Of a stretch of 64,000 nucleotides of DNA, positions 7,083 to 64,000 are shown piece after piece (the stretch's first letter is position 1; each line of letters begins with the position of its first letter). The notes beneath the pieces are model-generated. The model was not told the DNA's origin. It ran no database searches and saw nothing but the letters and a program-made list of their open reading frames with translations. This stretch comes from Eledone cirrhosa (lineage: Eukaryota): contig OZ024742.1 in assembly GCA_964016885.1 (NCBI GenBank), positions 205,902,001-205,966,000 on the forward strand, read 5' to 3'. The position numbers and the translations under genes are program-made.

Positions 7083-9029
7083 AAATATAAGTAATAATAT
7101 TGTCTGGATAGTTGTCAAGAAGCTGGTGTTAATGGAAGGCTAAGAAAAACATTGTTAAGTGAACTTAACCTTCAAGAAAAAGATATATTCACAGTAAGAT
7201 TTGAGAGAATATTGAGTGGAAAGAAAGAAAATTTTAGATCGGTATCATAGGGTGATGATTTATAAAAGAAGTTATAGCTTTAGTATTTTGTTGGATGTTC
7301 TACTTATGATGAGAACAATGTATACAAAACTTGCTGTGATAGTCTGTAGCTGAAGACCAATTTAACAGCAATGTAATCAAAGATTTGTTATAATAGTTGC
7401 TATATTGGCAGTTAATATAAAATATATAAAGTGTTTATTTGTAAAAAGGTAAAACATACAAAATGAATTAAGGTCTTGTGAAGCTATCATGTCGAGTTAA
7501 TGGAATAAAGTTTAGCTGTATCGTACAGATCTAAAACATATTACTAGTTCAACATATGAGAAATAGGAGGTAATATCAATCCAGATTTTAGTGTTATATA
7601 CTAAAACTGTAGAAATTTATTCAAAATGAAATACAAATGAAAAGTTAAGAACAAGGATTTTCTATGATAAATCTTATCCGACTCTTTTTAAAAAGTTAAT
7701 TGAGGTTTGTTATAAAACTAAAACCCTTTAATCATGATTTTATATTAATGATAGGTGCAACCATGGCTGCGTGGTTAAGCATTTAACTTGACAACCATGT
7801 GGTTATGAGTTCTGTCCCATTGCATTATCCTGCAGGCAAATGTCTTCTACTATAGTGTATGGCTGACCAATGTCTTGTGAGTGAAATTCATAGACAGAAA
7901 CTACAAAACCTGTCATACGTGTTCGTTTATCTCTTTTTGCTTTGTATTTCACATCACTAACATAACCAGTAATGGTTGTTTATGTTTTGCATAAACAGAA
8001 ATCCTGAGGTTCAGTAGTTAGATGTATGAAGACACTACACCTAACTTATAAAATTACTGATAGTTAGCATTAGTAAGAGCATTTGACAGTAAAATTCGAC
8101 CCCAAAAATCTCATCCAACGCCTGCCAGCATAGAAAAACAGACATAGAAACAATGATGATAATGAAGAAATCTAGTGAATTGTAGAGCAACTCGTTACTT
8201 TATAAGATATAAACTTATCAATAGAATTAAAGAAAACTGAGTTAGCACTCACTTGGAAATGTTACAGCAAAGCTGTATTTGTTGCCAGCACATTTAAGTA
8301 TTGATGAAATGTGAAAAGCTTCATAACCTCAAGATTAATGCCCAGCAACATCCAAGTGGGGTTGTGACCCCCAAGAATGACAGCTGTAGCAATGCTAGAT
8401 GTTGTCTATTGTAAATATATCAATCAAATCAATCTTGAAATTAATAAACTACTTTTCATAACTTGGATTTGAGCATCAGGTGATGGGTCACCAATAAAGC
8501 ATTTGATTGTTTGCCATATAATTGGTTGTTTTATACTTTGGTATGCATGTCACTCATAAAAGGTGTATACCGTGCTTAGTAAGCATTGGACATTACTTAA
8601 TGAATATTACTTAAACTACTAAGTAATTGATCATGAGCCAACAAGGATGCTTCAGCATGGTCATTTGACTTGCTAAAAATAGCAGCCAAATTACCTTTAA
8701 ATCACACACTAACATCTTAAAGAGGATGGCATCTAAGATTACAATAGATAATGTAGTATTAAATAAAGTGTCAAACGTCTAAATTTTGAGGATGAGTTAT
8801 TGTAAATGTGATTAACATTTTTATATATGGCAGTTACAAACTGAATGAATATGTAGTCATCATCATCATCATCCTCGTTTAACGTCCACTTTCCATGCTA
8901 GCATGGGTTAGTGTAGTTGTAAATATAAAATCATGCTTAATATCTAAAGATAATGTTAATAGCATGGAAAAAGGATAATTGCATTGATAACTAATAAAAA
9001 ATAAAAAAAATATAAGATGGTCATAGGTA

Positions 9030-12000
9030 TGCTCACCAGGACTGATCTATGACAAAACAATAATCTATGATCATCATGGCTGATCTATGACTAAACAATG
9101 ATCCATGCTCACCAGGACTGATCTATGACTTAACAATTATCCATGCTCACCAGGACTGGTCTATGACTAAACAATGATCCATGCTCACCAGGACTGGTCT
9201 ATGACTAAACAATGATCCATGATCACCAGGACTGATCTATGACTTAACAATGATCCATGATCACCAGGACTGATCTATGACTTAACACTTAACAATGATC
9301 CATGCTCACCAGGACTGATCTATGACTTAACAATGATCTATGCTCGCCAGGACTGGTCTATGACTTAACACTTAACAATGATCCATGCTCACCAGGACTG
9401 ATCTATGATTTAACAATGATCCATGCTCACCAGGACTAATCTATGACTAAACAATGATCCATGCTCACCAGTCCTGATCTATGACTTAACAATGATCCAT
9501 GCTCACCAGGACTGGTCTATAACTAAACAATGATCCATGCTCACCAGGACTGGTCTATGACTAAACAATGATCCATGATCACCAGGACTGATCTATGACT
9601 TAACACTTAACAATGATCCATGCTCACCAGGACTGATCTATGACTTAACAATGATCTATGCTCGCCAGGACTGGTCTATGACTTAACACTTAACAATGAT
9701 CCATGCACACCAGGACTGATCTATGACTAAACAATGATCCATGCTCACCAGGACTGGTCTATGACTAAACAATGATCCATGCTCACCAGGACTGGTCTAT
9801 GACTAAACAATGATCCATGATCACCAGGACTGATCTATGACTTAACAATGATCCATGCTCGCCAGGACTGGTCTATGACTTAACACTTAACAATGATCCA
9901 TGCTCACCAGGACTGATCTATGACTTAACACTTAACAATGATCCATGCTCACCAGGACTGATCTATGACTAAACAATGATCCATGCTCACCAGGACTGAT
10001 CTATGACTTAACAATGATCCATGCTCACCAGGACTGGACTATGACTAAACAATGATCCATGCTCACCAGGACTGGTCTATGACTAAACAATGATCCATGA
10101 TCACCAGGACTGATCTATGACTTAACAATGATCCATGCTCGCCAGGACTGGTTTATGACTTAACACTTAACAATGATCCATGCTCACCAGGACTGATCTA
10201 TGACTTAACAATGATCCATGCTCACCAGGACTGATCTATGACTTAACAATGATCCATGCTCACCAGGACTGGTCTATGACTTAACAATGATCCTTGCTCA
10301 CCGGGACTGATCTATGACTTAACAATGATCCATGCTCACCAGGACTGATCTATGACTTAACAATGATCCATGCTCACCAGGACTGATCTATGACTAAACA
10401 ATGATCCATGCTCACCAGGACTGGTCTATGACTAAACAATGATCCATGCTCACTAGGACTGGTCTATGACTAAACAATGATCCATGCTCACCAGGACTGG
10501 TCTATGACTTAACAATGATCCATGCTCACCAGGACTGATCTATGACTTAACAATGATCCATGCTCACCCGGACTGATCTATGACTAAACAATGCTCCATG
10601 CTCACCAGGACTGATCTATGACTTAACAATGATCCATGCTCACCAGGACTGATCTATGACTAAACAATGATCCATGCTCACCAGGACTGGTGTATGAGTA
10701 AACAAGGATCCATGCTCACCAGGACTGATCTATGACTTAACAATGATCCATGCTCACCAGGACTGATCTATGACTTAACAATGATACATGCTCACCAGGA
10801 CTGATCTATGACTAAACAATGATCCATGCTCACCAGGACTGATCTATGACTTAACAATGATCCATGCTCACCAGGACTGATCTATGACTAAACAATGATC
10901 CATGCTCACCAGGACTGATCTATGACTTAACAATGATCCATGCTCACCAGGACTGGTCTATGACTTAACAATGATCCATGCTCACCAGGACTGGTTTATG
11001 ACTAAACAATGATCCATGCTCACCAGGACTGATCTATGACTTAACAATGATCCATGCTCACCAAGACTGGTCTATGACTAAACAATGATCCATGCTCACC
11101 AGGACTGGTCTATGACTAAACAATGATCCATGCTCACCAGCACTGATCTATGATTTAACAATGATCCATGCTCACCAGGACTGGTCTATGACTAAACAAT
11201 GATCCATGTTCAGCAGGACTGATCTATGACTTAACAATGATCCATGCTCACCAGGATTGATCTATGACTTAACAATGATCCATGCTCACCAGGACTGATC
11301 TATGACCAAACAATGATCCATGCTCACCAGGACTGGTCTATGACTAAACAATGATCCATGCTCACCAGGACTGGTCTATGACTTAACACTTAACAATGAT
11401 CCATGCTCACCAGGAGTGATCTATGACTTAACAATGATCCATGCTTGCCAGGACTGGTTTATGACTTAACACTTAACAATGATCCATGCTCACCATGACT
11501 GATCTATGACTTAACAATGATCCATGCTCACCAGGACTGATCTATGACTAAACAATGATCCATGCTCACCAGGACTGATCTATGACTTAACAATGATCCA
11601 TGCTCACCAGGACTGATCTATGACTTAACAATGATCCATGCTCACCAGGACTGGTCTATGACTTAACAATGATCCTTGCTCACCGGGACTGATCTATGAC
11701 TTAACAATGATCCATGCTCACCAGGACTGATCTATGACTTAAAAATGATCCATGCTCACCAGGACTGATCTATGACTAAACAATGATCCATGCTCACCAG
11801 GACTGGTCTATGACTAAACAATGATCCATGCTCACTAGGACTGGTCTATGACTAAACAATGATCCATGCTCACCAGGACTGGTCTATGACTTAACAATGA
11901 TCCATGCTCACCAGGACTGATCTATGACTTAACAATGATCCATGCTCACCCGGACTGATCTATGACTAAACAATGATCCATGCTCACCAGGACTGGTCTA

Positions 12001-17482: not shown

Positions 17483-17642
17483 GATACTCCTGTTGCCCAA
17501 CATTCACGGTGCTCAAAGAAGCGTAAATTTATTCCTTGAATTTTCTGCCAAAAATCTTTGCCAATGTGCATTTTCAATTTTGAATTTTTATTTGTACTTT
17601 GTTTTGTTTTGTATTACGCTCTCTTCATTGACTTATATTATA

Positions 17643-17747
17643 CTATCTGGCCCGTCCGGCTGGCGCCCGGCTAGGTATACTGGCATTTTATCTTTTCAGG
17701 AAACCCCCTTCACTCCAGTGCAAAGATACCGCACGCCCTCTCAGGTC

Positions 17748-17804
<57 letters not shown>

Positions 17805-18916
17805 GTGTGTGTGTGGGGGGGGAGGGGGTTACGTGCTCTGATGTTGGGTTTGAATAGTTTTTAGGATTCCCCAGTTCAACAGCCAGTACGTTAAAGAAAA
17901 TTGATAGTTACAACAATAAAGGCTGAACAGAGAACACAATTTTTAACAAACTTTACAATAATTTGTACAACCATAATGGAAATTCCAAGTAACAGAAAAT
18001 ACATAAATTACATTGTTCGAGCTTCAGAGTATACAATATTTTTTGTTCGGCCCTCGGGAGCAAAGATGAAGAGATTGTTTGGCGAGCTCACCCTAGAACA
18101 TCCTACATACAATTGACCATGGGAGAAGCATGGTTTTCCCAGATGAAGGGCAGCCACTTTTAGGGTTTGACCCTGAACTTTGTTGATGGTAAACGCGAAG
18201 CTTAGTCTCTCTGTTGCTCTAGTAACATTTTGTCTTCTGGAAAATCTGATCTTGAGGCAAGGCTGAGACGTTTTGGGTGGCATATCGACAGTAACAATGA
18301 TGATAAGCCGTCTGTGCTTTCGTGAAATAAATACGTTTGTTTATATTTTGTTTTTATGTATGCAAAAATATCTGTACATGAATATATAATTATATATATA
18401 TTAAAATAACAGATTAAAGTTTAAGCAAAGAATCGCTGCTTTCACCCTTAACGGGATCTTCTGAAACTAAAAAAATCAATCTGTGAACGCAGAAGTAAAT
18501 ATTTCGAAAAACGTTACAGGGCGTGAGGTATCTTTGCACTGAATTAATTAAAATTTGGTTAGAAGCGAAGTCAATGCAGACAGGCAGCCAGACAGACAGA
18601 TATTATAAGCGTGTAACGTTATAGCTATGTATCTAATGCAGAAAGCCAGACATACAGAGACATATTATAAGGGCGCGATGTTATAGCTATGTATCTATCT
18701 AAAAAGACAGACTAAGAAAGATAGAGGAATGTCGTATAACCGGAAGTGTTGACATATGAAAACTTTAAAGAAGTGAATATTTAAATAAACGATAAAATAT
18801 CTTTAATCTTTTAACGAAATTTAGAAGACAAAAATACTCTCACTTTCTTACTTAGAAAAAGTTACATCTATGGTGCTTTTAGGTCCAGCCGTTTGGCGTC
18901 AGCTTTATAATATAGA
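17643..18916 (-). mobile_element. Non-autonomous Helitron H1 with PIF1-like helicase C-terminal remnant (18008-~18205)
   Basis: Minus-strand 5' TCTATATTATAAAG at 18916, GC hairpin near the left end, inserted at A|T. Translation FAFTINKVQGQTL...PCFSHGQLYVGCSRV. Confidence 0.8.
18402..18520 (-). mobile_element. Fragment of Penelope family A pLTR with hammerhead-like motif (18418-18468)
   Basis: Near-identical to 22203-22320. Confidence 0.8.
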
Positions 18917-20277: not shown

Positions 20278-20336
20278 GTGGGGGCCCTAAAAAGGGCCTT
20301 ATGTGCGTTCAGATGTAGCCCTTAAAAGGACTTTGT
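20278..20336 (-). promoter_or_regulatory. Two histone-mRNA-type 3' stem-loop motifs in Helitron H2
   Basis: Minus strand AA-GGCCCT-TTTT-AGGGCC-CCCA (20283-20298) and CAA-AGTCCT-TTTA-AGGGCT-ACA (20317-20332). Both are 6-bp stems with a 4-nt U-rich loop. Confidence 0.6.
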
Positions 20337-20653
20337 TCACTGGCAGCCCTTAAAAAGAAATTGGTTGCTTTCCCTGGCAGCCCATAGAATAACTCTGTAT
20401 ACGTTCAGAATTTGTTCATATACCTTAAATTGTCGCGCCAATTGTCAACCAATGGAGGGTTTCTTCTCTGCAGGTGTTCACCTTAAACCAAAGGAAACAG
20501 ACGTTTTGTTAAGAAACAAAAGTAAAAGTAAACCAGGCTTGTTAAAGAAATGGCGATAACGTACCTACCTCCTCGCTGTTGCGCTTATAACACTGTTATA
20601 TCGGATGCTGAACGCTTTGGAGTTAACACCGGGGTCGCCGTCAACAATTTCAA

Positions 20654-20712
20654 GTGGAGGCCCTAAAAAGGACCGTATGCGCGTCCACTTGTAGCCCTTA
20701 AAAGGACTTTGA
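20654..20712 (-). promoter_or_regulatory. Two further histone-type stem-loop motifs in Helitron H2
   Basis: AC-GGTCCT-TTTT-AGGGCC-TCCA (20659-20674) and CAA-AGTCCT-TTTA-AGGGCT-ACAA (20693-20708). Confidence 0.6.
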
Positions 20713-33223: not shown

Positions 33224-33405
33224 CTTTCACCGTATTTTTTAGTAAAGGAATTTTAGTCTGATAATGGGGTTTAGAACCCTCAGATAAATGGAAAAAGATG
33301 AGTATTGACGTACATGTACGTCAATACTCATCTTTTTCCATTTATCTGAGGGTTCTAAACCCCATTATCAAGCTAAAATTCCTTTAGTCAAAAATACGGT
33401 GAAAG
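33224..33405. repeat. Spacer-less 182-bp palindrome within a (TA)n-flanked element
   Basis: Centre gacgtaca|tgtacgtc at 33314/33315. The arms pair out to ctttcacc/ggtgaaag. Confidence 0.95.
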
Positions 33406-33430
33406 ATATATATATATTTTTATATATATA

Positions 33431-34286
33431 CTAGCAGTAAAGCCCGGCGTTGCTCGGGGTCGCTCAGTAGCTGTGTTAAAGTTACAATGTTAAGTTTCTT
33501 TTTTGGCTCAAAAACTGTAGTGTCTACTGTGCAGACTTGCATGTGGTGTTTTTGATTAATATTCCCTCAACCAACAATATGCCTTATGAAGTTAAGAAAA
33601 CATAACGATAACCCGAATGTTATAACAAAAGAGGTTGCTGGGGATAAAAACTGCACTGGTTATTTATTAACAAAGATCGAAAATGTAAACACTGCAACGC
33701 AGAGAAAACCATTAGCGTAACCAAATTATCAGTTATGTCTGTCTGCACGCCTATATCACCTCTCTGCACGACTGTCTGTCTGCACGACTGTCTGTCTGCA
33801 CGCCTATATCACCTCTCTGCACGACTGTCTGTCTGCACGACTGTCTGTCTGCACGCCTAACGACGAAATATTTGCTTGTTTTACGTAGTCTTTAAATAGA
33901 CTTGTTTTCAAGTAAAAATATTGTTTTAAAATGCTTTTAAATGGAAATAAAGCAAAACGGAAGCTTAGTGTTCGAACTGATGAATTTTGCAGGTCAATAT
34001 TTTGCTGGCTCGACAACTGTTAAAGCCAGCGTAATTTTTTACGTAAGACGCTCAATGTAAACAGAACAAAGGGAAATAACTGATCACTTACGCTCAAAAA
34101 TCGATACATTATATTCGATTTCGTCACATAGGGTGGGTCAATTTGAAATTTTTTTTTTCCGATGTCTTCGCTAGGGCGCAATGTACAAGTATAGCAATTT
34201 CGGTGCAATTCCGTGAGAGATTCTAAGAGGAGATGTGTGCCAAAAATCGATAGACAGACAGACAACCACAGTTTTATATATATAGA
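33431..34286 (-). mobile_element. Non-autonomous Helitron H3
   Basis: CTAG (33431) plus hairpin cccggcgttgctcggg. Minus-strand 5' TCTATATATATAAAAC...gtctgtctgtct at 34286. Confidence 0.8.
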
Positions 34287-34289
34287 TAA

Positions 34290-35195
34290 GACAATGAGAT
34301 TTTTTTTAAAAAGGGAAAAAAACGAGATGTCCTACATGAGTGAAAGTATAAGGAAAAAAGATGAAATCGAAAATGCAACTGGAGTCTTTCTAAGAATATT
34401 TATTAGTTTCTTTTACCGGTTTCACAGCTCTTAAGCTTTTCAAAAGTCGAATTGAGATGGAGGGTTTGTGGTTTTTCTCACATCTGGTTTTATTTCAATA
34501 GAACGTCTGAATTTTGACACCTGTGCACATCAGCCAGAACAAATCATTGAACCAGAACAATTCTCCCCATCCCTTTTTTCTTGACCATTAGCTTTTGTTT
34601 GGCACAAAACTCTCTATGACAAATCATGTGACTGTGAAAACGGCTACGAAGAACCCCCAAATACGAACTGGCGGCACAGAATTTAATGTACTTATTCACG
34701 TGACAGTCATAACCAATCAAATTACATTTATAAAAAAACAACATTTTTGAGCCTCTTTTTTAACTGAAAAGGACAATAAAGAACCCTCAATCACGAACTG
34801 GCACACAAGTTGATGTACTTATTCACGTGTCTGTCATCAACCAACCAAATTTCACTTATATATGAAAAAAACAATCTGAGCCCCCCCTTTTTTTAAAGGC
34901 AAATACGATAAGAACTTTGTAACACGAATGGGCACAAAAATGTATTATACTTATTCACGTGACAGTCATCAACCAACCAAATAATTTTTCTAAAAAACCT
35001 AGCATTTCGAGCCACTTTTTTCCACATAAAACAGAAGTAACATTTGAACACCAGCCAGATGCGAGAAAAACCACGAACCCTCCAGCTCAATTTGACTTTT
35101 GAAAAGCATAAGAATTGTGAAACCGGTAAAGGAAACAAATAAATATTCTTAAAAAGATTCCAGTTGCATTTCGATTTCATCTTCTTTCCTTATAT
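34290..35195 (+). mobile_element. Non-coding 3' portion of a Neptune-like PLE (family C) with inverted terminal copy
   Basis: 34345-34488 is inverted relative to 35055-35195. The interior matches the reverse complement of 50465-50990, which lies 3' of the PLE ORF at 51240-52518. Confidence 0.8.
35096..35131 (+). ncRNA. Hammerhead motif with U3-A8 compensatory core (TTGAAAA)
   Basis: CTT TTGAAAA GCA TAAGAAT TGT GAAA CCGG TA AAG then AATAAA. Inverted copy at 34410-34446. Confidence 0.55.
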
Positions 35196-40545: not shown

Positions 40546-41865
<1,320 letters not shown>

Positions 41866-59098: not shown

Positions 59099-61997
59099 AC
59101 ATTGGTTTCAACTACGAATAGAATAGATTTGTCAATAGCAAGAAGGCAAAGTTTTTCTATATATCAATTTGAATATTTTGAAGAGTAGAAAAAGTAGTAA
59201 ATTTCTTGTTTATTGACCTATGAATTTTTTCTTAAAATTTCTTTTTAAAAGTAGAAATTTTAAGGGACTTAAGAGAAAGGAACAATGGCATCAGATGTTA
59301 TTTTGTGGTCTTGAATACAATAACCAAATAAATTGATTTGCTGTGAATCTTTTTATATTTTTTAATGAATCTATATTCAACTTAGTTTCTCCTCATCATG
59401 CATAGAAACTTACAATCTTTCATATTTATGGAATAATCTATATATATAAAACAGAAGGTGTCTGTCTGTCTGTGTAATCATATGCATTTCTACATTTTAC
59501 AACCGATTTGCACCAAATTTCATACATAGGTTTCTGAAGTCCTATTACGCGTTATAGGCTATTTTAATTTTCCATACATCGATTGTGCCCCCCCCCCCCC
59601 CGGAACAGATAACCCCCTTAAGCCTCTCGCTTGGAGTCAGCAGTACTGCTGCATAAAGGCCCCATAATTTCTGCAGTTTGCCTCCCATCTTCACCAAAAT
59701 TAATCTTTTGTTTTGCTTATGGCCTACAAATAAATTTGCAGGCATGCACTTGCGCATAAATTGGGGTAGGGGACCTCTTGGAGGGCAGTAAACCGACTTG
59801 ATGAATGTTGAAGTTGATATCATCAATGCAACAAAACGTCATAACTGCTTGAGTTGGTGTTTGGTTTTCACGAAGCGAAACGTATTGGTTACTCATGGCT
59901 TATAAAGGAAGATGAACACATGAAATTTTACTTGAACTTATCAAGGAGACTCCTGGGTAGGGGGGGGGGGGAGGTAGTAAGCCCCTTCGACTTATCTATT
60001 GAAGTTCACATTAACATTGTATTAGTACCTGATAACTTTTGAAGTTTACGTTCGATTTTAACTTTACCGGGCGCATTGGTTACCCATTGCCTAAAGATGA
60101 TGTTGAAGACACTGTCTATACCCAGAACAAGCAAGGGGACCCCCAGGGTGCAGTAAGCCCTGGCAAGTCATTTATTGTATTTGGCTACTGTAATGCAGCA
60201 AAGCGTCATAGCTTCGACAATTGGTAGTCCAATAAAATGAATTTCGACTTAGTTGTTATTCATGTACTATAGATGAAGATACAGTGAGACACATTTACTT
60301 TCATTTCAATTCAGCAAGAGGACCCCTTTGGGGACAATGAGCCCAATTCATTAAGCTATACAAGTTCAAACTGCCACAATAAAAAAGCACCATAACCTCG
60401 GGAGTTTATACTTGATTCTTACAAAAACTAAACAAAATGGTTATTGCAAGGGAACGCCCTAGGGAGGACAGTGAGCCCCTTTGGACCACTTTTAAAGTTC
60501 ATATTATGGTTGCAGCAAAGCATTTCAACTTCTGGAAATAAAAGTCAATTTAAACAAAAGTTGACGCATCGATCCTACAAATGGAGTAGCGAATTTTTAA
60601 ATCCCCCTGACTTAACTTTAGTTTGTTTAGTTAACTTTAGGATGATTGAATTTAATTTTGCACCCAGTTGTCTCCCCTGTGTAATTGCACCACAATTAAG
60701 TGCGGAATGGGGAGTTAAATTTTTTTCCTTGAACTTTGGCATCATTTCACACTCCTAACCAAGAAAGCGCGATTTAACCCAGGTGTAAATTTTAACGCCT
60801 ACTGTATGTGGATTGTGCTATTTCCCACTCATGCCTAAACTGTGCGAACAATTGATTAGTTTTTGCACCCAGTTAATTGCACCTCAATTAAGTGCAAAAT
60901 GGCGACCTCTGGCTAACCACACACCAGTGAGTTGTGTTCAGTAGATTTCATCACACTTATTTGTATTATCTAACCAATCAGACAACTCGAGTGTTGTTTA
61001 TTGAGCGAAATCACTCCTATTTATATCGGTCAAGTCCGACCTAGGATCACACTTCTTTTTTGGCTTTTGACAAGTGGTAGGTTTTTTTTACATACATACT
61101 AATTGAAATGGTTTCTGAAACGCATGCTTCTTCAACATTTATCACCTTAAATGAGGTTTAGTTAATGTGTTTATGGTCATAAGGTTTCAGTTTATCATGC
61201 TGTGATTTTTCGGCCATTTTTGCCTGTATCATTTCAATGATTAGTACTTACTTATTGCTATGTTCGAACTGAACAAACATAGTGACACTTATATACCTAC
61301 CACTGTAGCCACACTATTTAATTTCCTTTATCACAGGTAGTCTGTACGCTGTGTTGCCCCTAACTTAAAACCTGAAATTTGATTGGTACACAAAATCTTG
61401 CAAAACATACTCACTTTCTCAGACCACATAGATTTATCATTTTTGCACAATTTATATTTGTCTTTAGATTTGCTTACTTAAACGTCATTTGTCCACTATT
61501 TATCGTTCTCCCTGGTTAATTTTCTAAAAACAAAGCCCCCCAAGAAAAGAACTTTCATTGGTTGATTATCTAATGATGCAAGTAGGTCTAAGAGAAGGTG
61601 TCTCACCAAAGATGTAAATGCGACTACGATCAGGCTCTCACAGAATGCTGTGCAGACGGCAGCTGCTCGTGCTTGAGGGGATGAAGGCTGTTCGATGAAG
61701 CAGGGACGCTGCTGCAACATTCGCTGCTCACGTGCGAGAGGATGAAGGACAACGCGCCATTCGATGAAGCAGGGATGCCACTGCAACATTCGCTGCTCGC
61801 GGTCGAGAGGATGAAATACGACGCGCCGCATCGAAATACTGCTGCTGGACGAAATACTGAAAGCATAGAGCAATGACATGGCCGACTTCTGCAAAGTGAA
61901 CAGCGGTGATCATCGTTATGTGGCATTTCTAGGACTTGCAATTCACGATGGTTGTTGAAGGCCTTTAACTACGACCCCTCCTCCGACTACGCTGTGC

Positions 61998-62520
61998 TTG
62001 CCTGGAAACTTGCACGTTTACAAGACCCTTGACTCTATGGCTGATCCGGATGAAGTTGTTAATTACCCCACAGAATTTCTTAACTCCCTAGACCCTCCCG
62101 GATTGCCACCACACTTACTGCGACTTAAGAAAGGTGCCTTGTCATACTCCTCAGGAATTTGGAACCCCGAAGGCTTTCCAACGGCATGCGTCTGGTCATC
62201 CAAAAGGCGATGCCTCATGTTATTGAGGCAACAATACTTACAGGATGTAGTAAGAGAGATACTCTCTTCATACCAAGGATACCTCTCATTCCATCCAGTA
62301 AAGACATTGCTTTCACATTCAGAAGGCTGCAATTCCCTCTTTGGCTCAGTTTCGCCATGTCAGACGCTGACGGTCATAGAAGAATCGTAGAAAAACCGTG
62401 CTTCTCCCATGGTCAACTATATGTTGGCTGCTCTCGAGTGGGGAGCCGACATAACCTATTTGCTTTTGCAACTCGCGAGAAAACCCAAAAGTATTGTAGG
62501 CACCCTCTCCGCCAACAAGT
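61998..62520 (+). pseudogene. PIF1-like Helitron helicase C-terminal fragment (frameshifted)
   Basis: [63 protein letters not shown]. Confidence 0.9.
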
Positions 62521-62768
62521 AATCGCTGTTTTTTTTGTATAAGTGCTTACATTTGCTGTATACGTGTGCTATTTTTGTCCCTTTGACAATACCATGTACA
62601 CCTCTGAGGTTGCTGTGGCTATACGTTATAAATGTTAAATGTCTCCGTTTTCCACATTTATATGTTGCTATTACGCTTTCCTATCGATGTTCCATAGTTT
62701 TAGCCTAATTAATCTACTTTTCCCTACATCTTATTTACACATTTTTTTGACATTCCAGCATGATCTTG

Positions 62769-63067
62769 CTAAGGCCGTTTTTGTGGCCACCGACTGTTAC
62801 ATGCTTTTCTAGGTTACAATCTCAAATAACAAGCAAAGCAAATATGACACACCAAAGTGGTGTGAAGGACTTCTTAAGGGCCACCACCTCTAATCGGAGT
62901 CGGCTTTGCTGGCAGCACCGCTGCTGAGACTTTTAAGAGTGAACAATCCAAGGCTCTCTTCAGGGCCACCAACTTTAAATTGTTACCATCGGATTCGTCT
63001 TTGCTGGCAGCACCGACGCAGAGACATTTCAAAATGAACGTTCAAAGACCCTCTTTAGGGCCAACAC
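62769..63067 (+). promoter_or_regulatory. Four histone-mRNA-type 3' stem-loop motifs downstream of the Helitron helicase
   Basis: AA-GGCCGT-TTTT-GTGGCC-ACC (62773), AA-GGACTT-CTTA-AGGGCC-ACCA (62867), CCAA-GGCTCT-CTTC-AGGGCC-ACCA (62952), CAAA-GACCCT-CTTT-AGGGCC-AAC (63047). Confidence 0.6.
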
Positions 63068-64000
63068 CTATAAATTGTTACTTCTATAGTCGTGTTTAAT
63101 GGAAGTCTTTTGGTTCATTTGAACGACTACTCCATTGAGAGTTATACCGGTCAACGCCGGGTACCTCTGCTAGTTTTATATAAATTGACTATACACTGAT
63201 TATTACAGTCAAGCTTTAACATTCTTTAAAAACAACAATTATCTGCAAAGCCTTGACTACACATACTCCTTCTTTCCTCTGTTTTCATTCAAAACACTAA
63301 CTATATATTGCCATTTAATTTTTAGTCAATTTAAACTTCAGAATTTACTCTTGTCCTTCATAAAAATTCATTAACACTAACGATTCTTTTTTTCATTAAG
63401 GGTGTAATTTCAATAGATAAACACAATTCTGTTTTAGCACACTACTTTAAGTATGTTAGCTTCCATTCAACTTAATATACAAGAGCTCAAACTGAACATA
63501 AGCCACATTAATCTTACACATTTATACAATCTTTCTGTTAAGTGAGGCTTGAAAAAGTTATTGATACCTTAGACTAATAAAACAAAACCTCTATAAATTA
63601 TTACTGGGGTTGAGATGGGATACTAACAAAACATTGAAAAACACAAATAAAAGGTAATAAAAGGATGATGATGATGATGGTGGTGGTGGCAAGGTAGTGA
63701 ATTAGGAGGAAGTAGATGCTATTTTTATACATTGTTAATTTTTCTCATCTATAAAGTAATTGACTCATCAATTGATTAACTCCTGAAATAAATTTGGTAA
63801 ATGGTTGTTTTAAATTGAAAATTAACTGCCAGATTTTAACATATTGCTATAAATAAATCTATTCAGAATTGCATGTTAAGTTAAATATCTCGATTTCAAT
63901 GTAGGTAAAAGGAAAAATTACATAAAGAATATCAAACAAACAAAATCACCACCTGTACAACCACCAACTAATCACCATGCCAGCACCACCACCACTACCA

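Follow-up and report, generated by a model that had tools for sequence, protein, structure and literature searches.

A histone-type RNA 3'-end signal probably co-opted by one clade of Helitron transposons

To our knowledge, the stem-loop/SLBP/U7 pathway has been described as exclusive to replication-dependent histone messages. Why, then, does a Helitron carry an array of histone-type hairpins behind its RepHel gene, as is the case in the 64,000-nucleotide stretch of Eledone cirrhosa DNA analysed here (the window)? An earlier note on this DNA, made from the letters alone, had proposed that the transposon may have co-opted the SLBP pathway, and had added that this was not known to its author as a described Helitron feature. 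The latter point agrees with our literature search, which covered sources other than Repbase, Dfam, subscription papers and supplements and turned up no mention of histone stem-loops in Helitrons or in any other transposon. In the main text of a 2026 preprint (10.64898/2026.10.14.759114) neither "transpos" nor "non-histone" occurs, and "histone" does not occur in the accessible part of an Octopus vulgaris repeat paper (PMC13282606). Here we describe the sequence, strand, position and tandem amplification of the signal, its retention in four Helitron families and its loss in others, and we argue from sequence comparison that co-option of the histone 3'-end signal by a Helitron clade is probable.

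The array lies in a 3.7-kb Helitron of family A, in which an internal deletion joins 5' sequence to a helicase remnant (Table 1). The CTAG terminus is located where the earlier note had claimed it. The remnant was likewise correctly placed upstream of the hairpins, but it ends slightly before the suggested position of about 62520, at a TAG stop codon (62497-62499). In the relative P0001, the PIF1 domains PF05970 and PF21530 were found, and its nearest full-length relatives carry PF14214. Of 204 genome candidates, 40 were scored, namely the window copy and 39 others, which are 91-95% identical. In this genome of about 3.0 Gb, an H1 protein of the host has its highest identity (70-71%) with octopod H1, which makes a cephalopod host probable. 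Fuller relatives of about 5-9 kb have broken RepHel frames: an unbroken RepHel, and with it an intact autonomous copy of family A, was found in none of 20 long copies, the longest open stretch being 656 codons. Contigs under six other organism labels contain the hairpin region as well. The element in the window is itself a dead relic of a hairpin-bearing Helitron design.

Some other Helitron copies in the window are without the full hairpin (33400-34290 and 17600-18140 on the minus strand, 40580-41760 on the plus strand), and the one at 41 kb retains only a 3'-arm-like CAGGGCCACCA. The window also holds an unrelated 38-bp satellite of more than 80 copies (8900-12000) and an 848-nt inverted repeat with arms that are 99% complementary (1160-2976).

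Table 1. Positions of the Helitron features in the window, with the evidence or remarks for each.
Feature	Position	Strand	Evidence or remark
Decayed, internally deleted family-A Helitron	59437..63173	+	TC start, CTAG end, A-T target
Frameshifted remnant of RepHel PIF1 helicase C-terminus	61991..62499	+	Translation; alignment to family copies
Predicted 3'-UTR intron, GT...AG, T-rich	62519..62758	+	Donor in 26/30 copies, acceptor in 29/30 copies
Hairpin unit 1, diverged: UUUU loop, two G.U pairs	62773..62788	+	Rfam Histone3 15.5 bits
Hairpin unit 2, degenerate: fixed mismatch at pair 3, no fold in context	62867..62882	+	Family consensus, folding
Unit 3, full conserved block: GTGAAC upstream (62939), hairpin 62952-62967, ACCA, then downstream AAATTGTTAC (62977-62986)	62939..62986	+	Rfam Histone3 22.9 bits, E 0.009
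Unit 4: hairpin 63047-63062, downstream AAATTGTTAC (63072-63081)	63034..63081	+	Rfam Histone3 16.2 bits
Helitron 3' end of ordinary type: GC-rich terminal palindrome and CTAG	63147..63173	+	CTAG at 63170-63173
Second Helitron, non-coding B/C relative, with two exact host-type hairpins (20659-20674, 20283-20298)	20283..20674	-	23.1 bits

All four 16-mers listed in the earlier note stand on the plus strand exactly as claimed (Table 1), and their spacing, given there as 85-95 bp, measures 94, 85 and 95 bp. The array is real, but its members are copies of one tandem unit of about 95 bp rather than four independent occurrences. This unit has 201 exact matches genome-wide and none in the reversed pattern. 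Moreover, all 154 units in 42 family-A elements are sense and none is antisense, the motif always being in sense and behind RepHel. The number of units counted per family-A element varies from 3 to 6.

Folding of the window units gave a clean 6-bp/4-nt hairpin for unit 3 only, while unit 1 formed 5 pairs and units 2 and 4 folded otherwise. In the 30-copy consensus of family A, units 3 and 4 have perfect 6-bp stems and unit 1 has six pairs via G.U. The two mismatched stems pointed out earlier differ in kind: the mismatch of unit 2 is fixed in the family, whereas that of unit 4 is mostly decay of the window copy, in which the second base of the hairpin is mutated. Stem positions 1-3 of unit 4 read GAC in 3 of 26 aligned copies, and position 63048 is G in contigs of four other organisms. 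A G-C pair in position 2 of the stem and a U in position 3 of the loop are named as diagnostic in the accessible part of the 2026 preprint (10.64898/2026.10.14.759114). Unit 3 of the window, units 3 and 4 of the family consensus, and families B, C and D-long each have G2-C15 and a U3 in the loop, in a hairpin whose stem is 6 bp and whose loop is 4 nt long.

The covariance scan that the earlier note had suggested gave sub-threshold scores: Rfam Histone3 returned 22.9, 16.2 and 15.5 bits for three units, all below the gathering score of 34, and unit 2 was not listed. With the second Helitron of the window included, the hairpin copies range from 15.5 to 23.1 bits on RF00032. The comparison with shuffled sequence came out in favour of the motif, a one-mismatch host-type pattern occurring four times in the window, whereas 100 shuffles gave 0.04 matches on average and never more than 1. 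Two of these matches lie in the family-A element and two in the second Helitron at 20.3-20.7 kb, where each hairpin closes a run of degenerate units of about 34 bp.

The vertebrate consensus is the wrong yardstick for these hairpins, because the Helitron stem is exactly the one found in the histone genes of the host. The sequence of host histone ends is GG(C/T)CCT-TTTH-AGGGCC (38 ends in one table, 57 in another), which B, C and D-long match at 16 of 16 positions and family A at 15 of 16. Loop position 1 is U in all 57 distinct host ends, in B, C and D-long and in unit A1, but C in 128 of 135 family-A units. The C-starting loops remarked on earlier are a true departure of family A from the host. 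Human SLBP tolerates C at this position. For wild-type binding, two 5' adenines and one 3' adenine are enough according to the accessible part of a published study (PMC10388802), and units A1-A4 possess both 5' adenines and the 3' adenine.

A similar correction applies to the downstream element. The earlier note saw no purine-rich element, which is true of the vertebrate type; the host element, however, is not the vertebrate purine-rich motif but a WWWGT-like one, with G at +18/+19 in most genes, and it is matched in units 3 and 4. A WWGT motif with G at +17 to +21 is present in 46 of the 57 host ends, and H2A genes often have ATTGTT(T/A)ACC there. Behind the hairpins of units A3 and A4 stands ATTGTTAC, with G at +15, and the Helitron motif is similar to the one of host H2A genes. 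The downstream G of the Helitron units falls at +15/+16, whereas most host genes have theirs at +18/+19. When scored on a profile of the host element, A3, A4 and D reach 6.0-7.1 bits at a place 2-4 nt closer to the hairpin (random 95th percentile, 5.1), while B and C units reach at most 2.1 bits. Searching the host genome with the Rfam model for U7 gave a best match of 29.7 bits, which is below the cut-off and has a 5' end unlike the host motif; a convincing U7 gene was not recovered.

Genome-wide, there are 1010 exact copies of the host hairpin and none of its reversed form. Among the first 30 of these matches, all on contig 1, 10 lie in Helitrons (9 elements), 17 in Merlin-like transposons or their derivatives, 3 elsewhere and none in a histone gene; therefore, hairpin-based annotation of histone genes would mislead here. 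Eight of the 10 Helitron hairpins have a CTAG downstream on the same strand, the other two being assigned by likeness, and families B, C and D-long were defined from these Helitron members. Four Helitron families (A, B, C and D) thus have a sense-strand hairpin downstream of the RepHel stop codon, at 278-585 nt in B, C and D-long. In each of them at least one unit is near-canonical while others decay.

A helicase tree of 54 segments places families A-G in one clade (support 99), in which B and C group as sisters (100), E and G come next to this pair (88), F lies outside the other six families (71), and A and D are placed with a support of only 44. The hairpin is absent from E, F and G. In family D, 26 of 30 copies form a subfamily (D-short) with the hairpin deleted. 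The D-short helicase consensus is open over 479 codons and shows 23 silent and 20 replacement differences from D-long, the consensus of which is based on 4 copies only. A coding lineage has thus thrived without the hairpin, and the signal is dispensable in sister lineages. The conservation across families sought in the earlier note is accordingly found in the diverged A, B/C and D, but not in E, F, G or most D copies. The tree and this patchy presence indicate that the signal either was ancestral to the clade and was lost several times, or was gained more than once.

We ruled out the hairpin as a general feature of Helitrons. A sense hairpin behind the stop was found at only 1 of 40 other RepHel loci and at none of 81 loci in public contigs (80 metagenome, 1 viral), many of which have less than 500 nt downstream and many of whose hosts are probably non-animal. 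One metagenome locus (L264) holds a different Helitron with a 3' tandem array of non-histone hairpins followed by ACCA, so hairpin arrays in Helitron 3' regions may recur with other sequences. Another locus (L105:1147-6303) has an unbroken 1718-codon RepHel frame with STPR repeats and belongs to a family without the hairpin.

Fourfold-degenerate helicase sites differ by 71-73% between A, B/C and D (81-94 sites per pair), which is saturation, and by 33% between B and C. In each of the five UTR pairs compared across lineages, a block of about 50 nt around the hairpin nevertheless gave the best local alignment, and its scores of 44-65 exceeded the best of 200 shuffles (39-45) in every pair. When the block was masked, scores fell to 22-31, the level of the shuffles, and no other part aligned. 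Its parts are, in order, GAACG, a spacer, the hairpin, ACC, another spacer and AATTGTT. When A is compared with D, 40 of its 49 columns are identical; of the 9 differences, 8 are located in the spacers and 1 affects the hairpin, and the downstream motif is conserved at 10 of 10 bases. The full block was found in none of the host H1, H2A, H2B, H3 and H4 ends examined for a donor gene, one H1 end being faintly similar to it.

The stem changes tell the same way on the covariation check put forward in the earlier note. The 22 stem changes seen across nine diverged unit types disrupt 4 pairs, compared with 13.5 expected (simulated P 4e-5; 0.002 in a 7-unit subset), and the G2-C15 pair is never altered (P 0.01-0.03), the P values of the pairing test being optimistic because the units were chosen by motif likeness and are related by descent. 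Folding of full UTRs gives the canonical unit a probability of about 1.0 in A, B and D. This pattern of conservation points to selection. Since the hairpin was kept while the surrounding DNA diverged beyond recognition, these Helitrons likely borrow the end pathway of histone messages.

On the DNA, the hairpins of A-D lie 270-590 nt from the stop, outside the range of 25-60 nt that is described as critical for regulated decay in the accessible part of the 2026 preprint (10.64898/2026.10.14.759114); rapid decay at the end of S phase is therefore unlikely. Several families (A in the window, B, C, D and the hairpin-less F) have intron-like GT...AG segments that begin 15-60 nt after the RepHel stop, and in B and C the module of intron plus array is duplicated. 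Splicing of the predicted intron in the window would bring unit A1, and only that unit, to 33 nt behind the stop; the spliced joint of the predicted family-A intron was found at none of 488 loci. Such predicted introns in the 3' UTR would favour polyadenylation. Between stop and end, family A has neither AATAAA nor ATTAAA, whereas B and D have one or the other further downstream. A search for hairpin-terminated retrocopies found no element end marked by any of the 242 units checked.

The best explanation, to which we give an even chance on the sequence evidence, is that the RepHel message has a selected SLBP/U7 histone-type 3' end. An ancestor of one Helitron clade would have gained the end signal of a host histone message behind its RepHel gene, presumably by capture from a histone gene. 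SLBP would then bind the canonical hairpin unit of the RepHel pre-mRNA, U7 snRNP would cut a few bases behind the hairpin and upstream of the terminal palindrome, and the message would receive a histone-type end without a poly(A) tail. Selection would have kept the signal for use by SLBP and U7, acting on the RNA rather than on the DNA. SLBP is present only in S phase in cycling cells and is abundant in oocytes. A speculative benefit is that RepHel would be made in the germ line, or at a time at which the replication enzymes of the host can complete the copied strand.

The conservation evidence would be the same if the hairpins were selected SLBP sites within a spliced, polyadenylated RepHel message, aiding its export, storage or translation (in oocytes, for example) without U7 cleavage. 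Several hairpins per element, the long distance from the stop, the intron-like signals, the poly(A) hexamers of B and D, and B and C units that lack a well-placed host-type downstream motif would all suit such a message. However, binding alone needs no downstream motif, and yet this motif is kept in full between A and D at roughly the right place; family A is, moreover, without a canonical poly(A) hexamer, and we consider an internal SLBP site quite unlikely. The hairpins might instead act as DNA on the displaced top strand during peel-and-paste transposition, as pause, binding or alternative stop signals for RepHel, in which case the likeness to histone ends would reflect their origin only. 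The sense strand is the displaced strand, so strand bias and the direction of wobble would not separate RNA from single-stranded DNA, and pairing between the complementary motifs AACGAT (upstream) and ATTGTT (downstream) could give rise to an outer stem, as it does in one fold. Such an outer stem was ruled out as inconsistent across families. A DNA hairpin would have no need of the host loop and ACC flank that are exactly retained, the elements end in the usual terminal palindrome and CTAG common to hairpin-less families, and the position of all 242 units away from element ends also makes a DNA role distinctly improbable.

A neutral history would involve one capture of a histone 3' end, its amplification as a minisatellite, and swaps of 3' modules after the helicases had diverged. 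Helitrons do capture and shuffle sequence, and they commonly contain tandem repeats internally as well as pieces taken from the host. A relic would fit the recent capture of an H4 3' end by a DDE transposon of this genome, unrelated to Helitrons, as well as the loss or absence of the signal from D-short and from E, F and G, and the variable number of units. A recent swap, however, predicts matching flanks and even divergence, while only about 50 nt match and the spacers differ where the hairpin does not; stem changes, moreover, preserve pairing and spare G2-C15. A neutral relic is thus unlikely. With these alternatives weighed, a selected SLBP/U7 end remains the reading that we prefer, in which the hairpin signal likely works as a histone 3' end carried by an otherwise ordinary Helitron.

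The DDE transposon (L349:248-1749; L482-L487) is about 2 kb long, with inverted ends and an ISXO2/Merlin-like frame (PF12762, E 8.7e-19). About 140 nt behind the frame it carries the host hairpin and downstream element in sense, and a second copy is inverted upstream. Over 64 nt, the captured end and the end of one H4 gene (L036) share 97% identity, and this recent event shows that accidental capture of histone ends does take place in this genome. The Merlin-like element may also be a second co-option of the histone end. We raise as a tentative possibility that two unrelated classes of DNA transposon independently wired their transposase messages into the SLBP/U7 pathway, the Helitron clade anciently and with its signal under selection, so that transposons would be a natural non-histone client of the pathway, with copying timed to the germ line or to DNA replication. 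The Merlin-like element also has a relative in a fold-back repeat (L032-L060, many on contig C18), which has two outward-facing H4-type hairpins about 46 nt apart and is the source of most of the top Rfam Histone3 matches in the genome.

If the RepHel message does end in histone style, it would provide the SLBP/U7 pathway with a natural non-histone client and the transposon with a means of matching the timing of its enzyme with DNA replication or with the oocyte. Histone-type RepHel transcripts would then be missed by poly(A)-selected RNA-seq. D-long versus D-short and B/C versus E/G are natural comparison pairs for this idea.

Several known systems can be set beside these elements. Family A shares with the canonical Helitron (Helitron1 type) the 5'-TC, the 3' palindrome with CTRR and the AT target, and the window element also shares RepHel with a PIF1-type helicase, here as a remnant; families A-D differ in having what appears to be a conserved signal for a histone-type RNA end 3' of RepHel, of which our literature search gave no published case and which was absent from the other Helitron families of this genome and from the 81 loci of public contigs. 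With the histone mRNA 3' end (RF00032), B, C and D-long share the identical 6-bp stem and 4-nt loop of the host. G2-C15, loop U3, the A-rich 5' flank, the ACC 3' flank and the position on the sense strand after the stop codon are also shared, and A and D additionally have a host-like downstream motif, although 2-4 nt closer to the hairpin. The Helitron hairpins differ in that they follow RepHel, come as several tandem units, score below the Rfam cut-off in the window copies, have a predicted intron upstream and lie 270-590 nt from the stop, compared with 10-114 nt in host genes. The histone loops of C. elegans given in the accessible part of a published study, CTTT and CTTA, start with C like those of family A and unlike those of this host (PMC1924863). 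Finally, the Merlin/ISXO2-like transposon resembles Helitrons A-D in having a gene followed by a sense host histone hairpin and downstream element, and differs in its unrelated cut-and-paste transposase and in its recent capture from a near-identical H4 locus.
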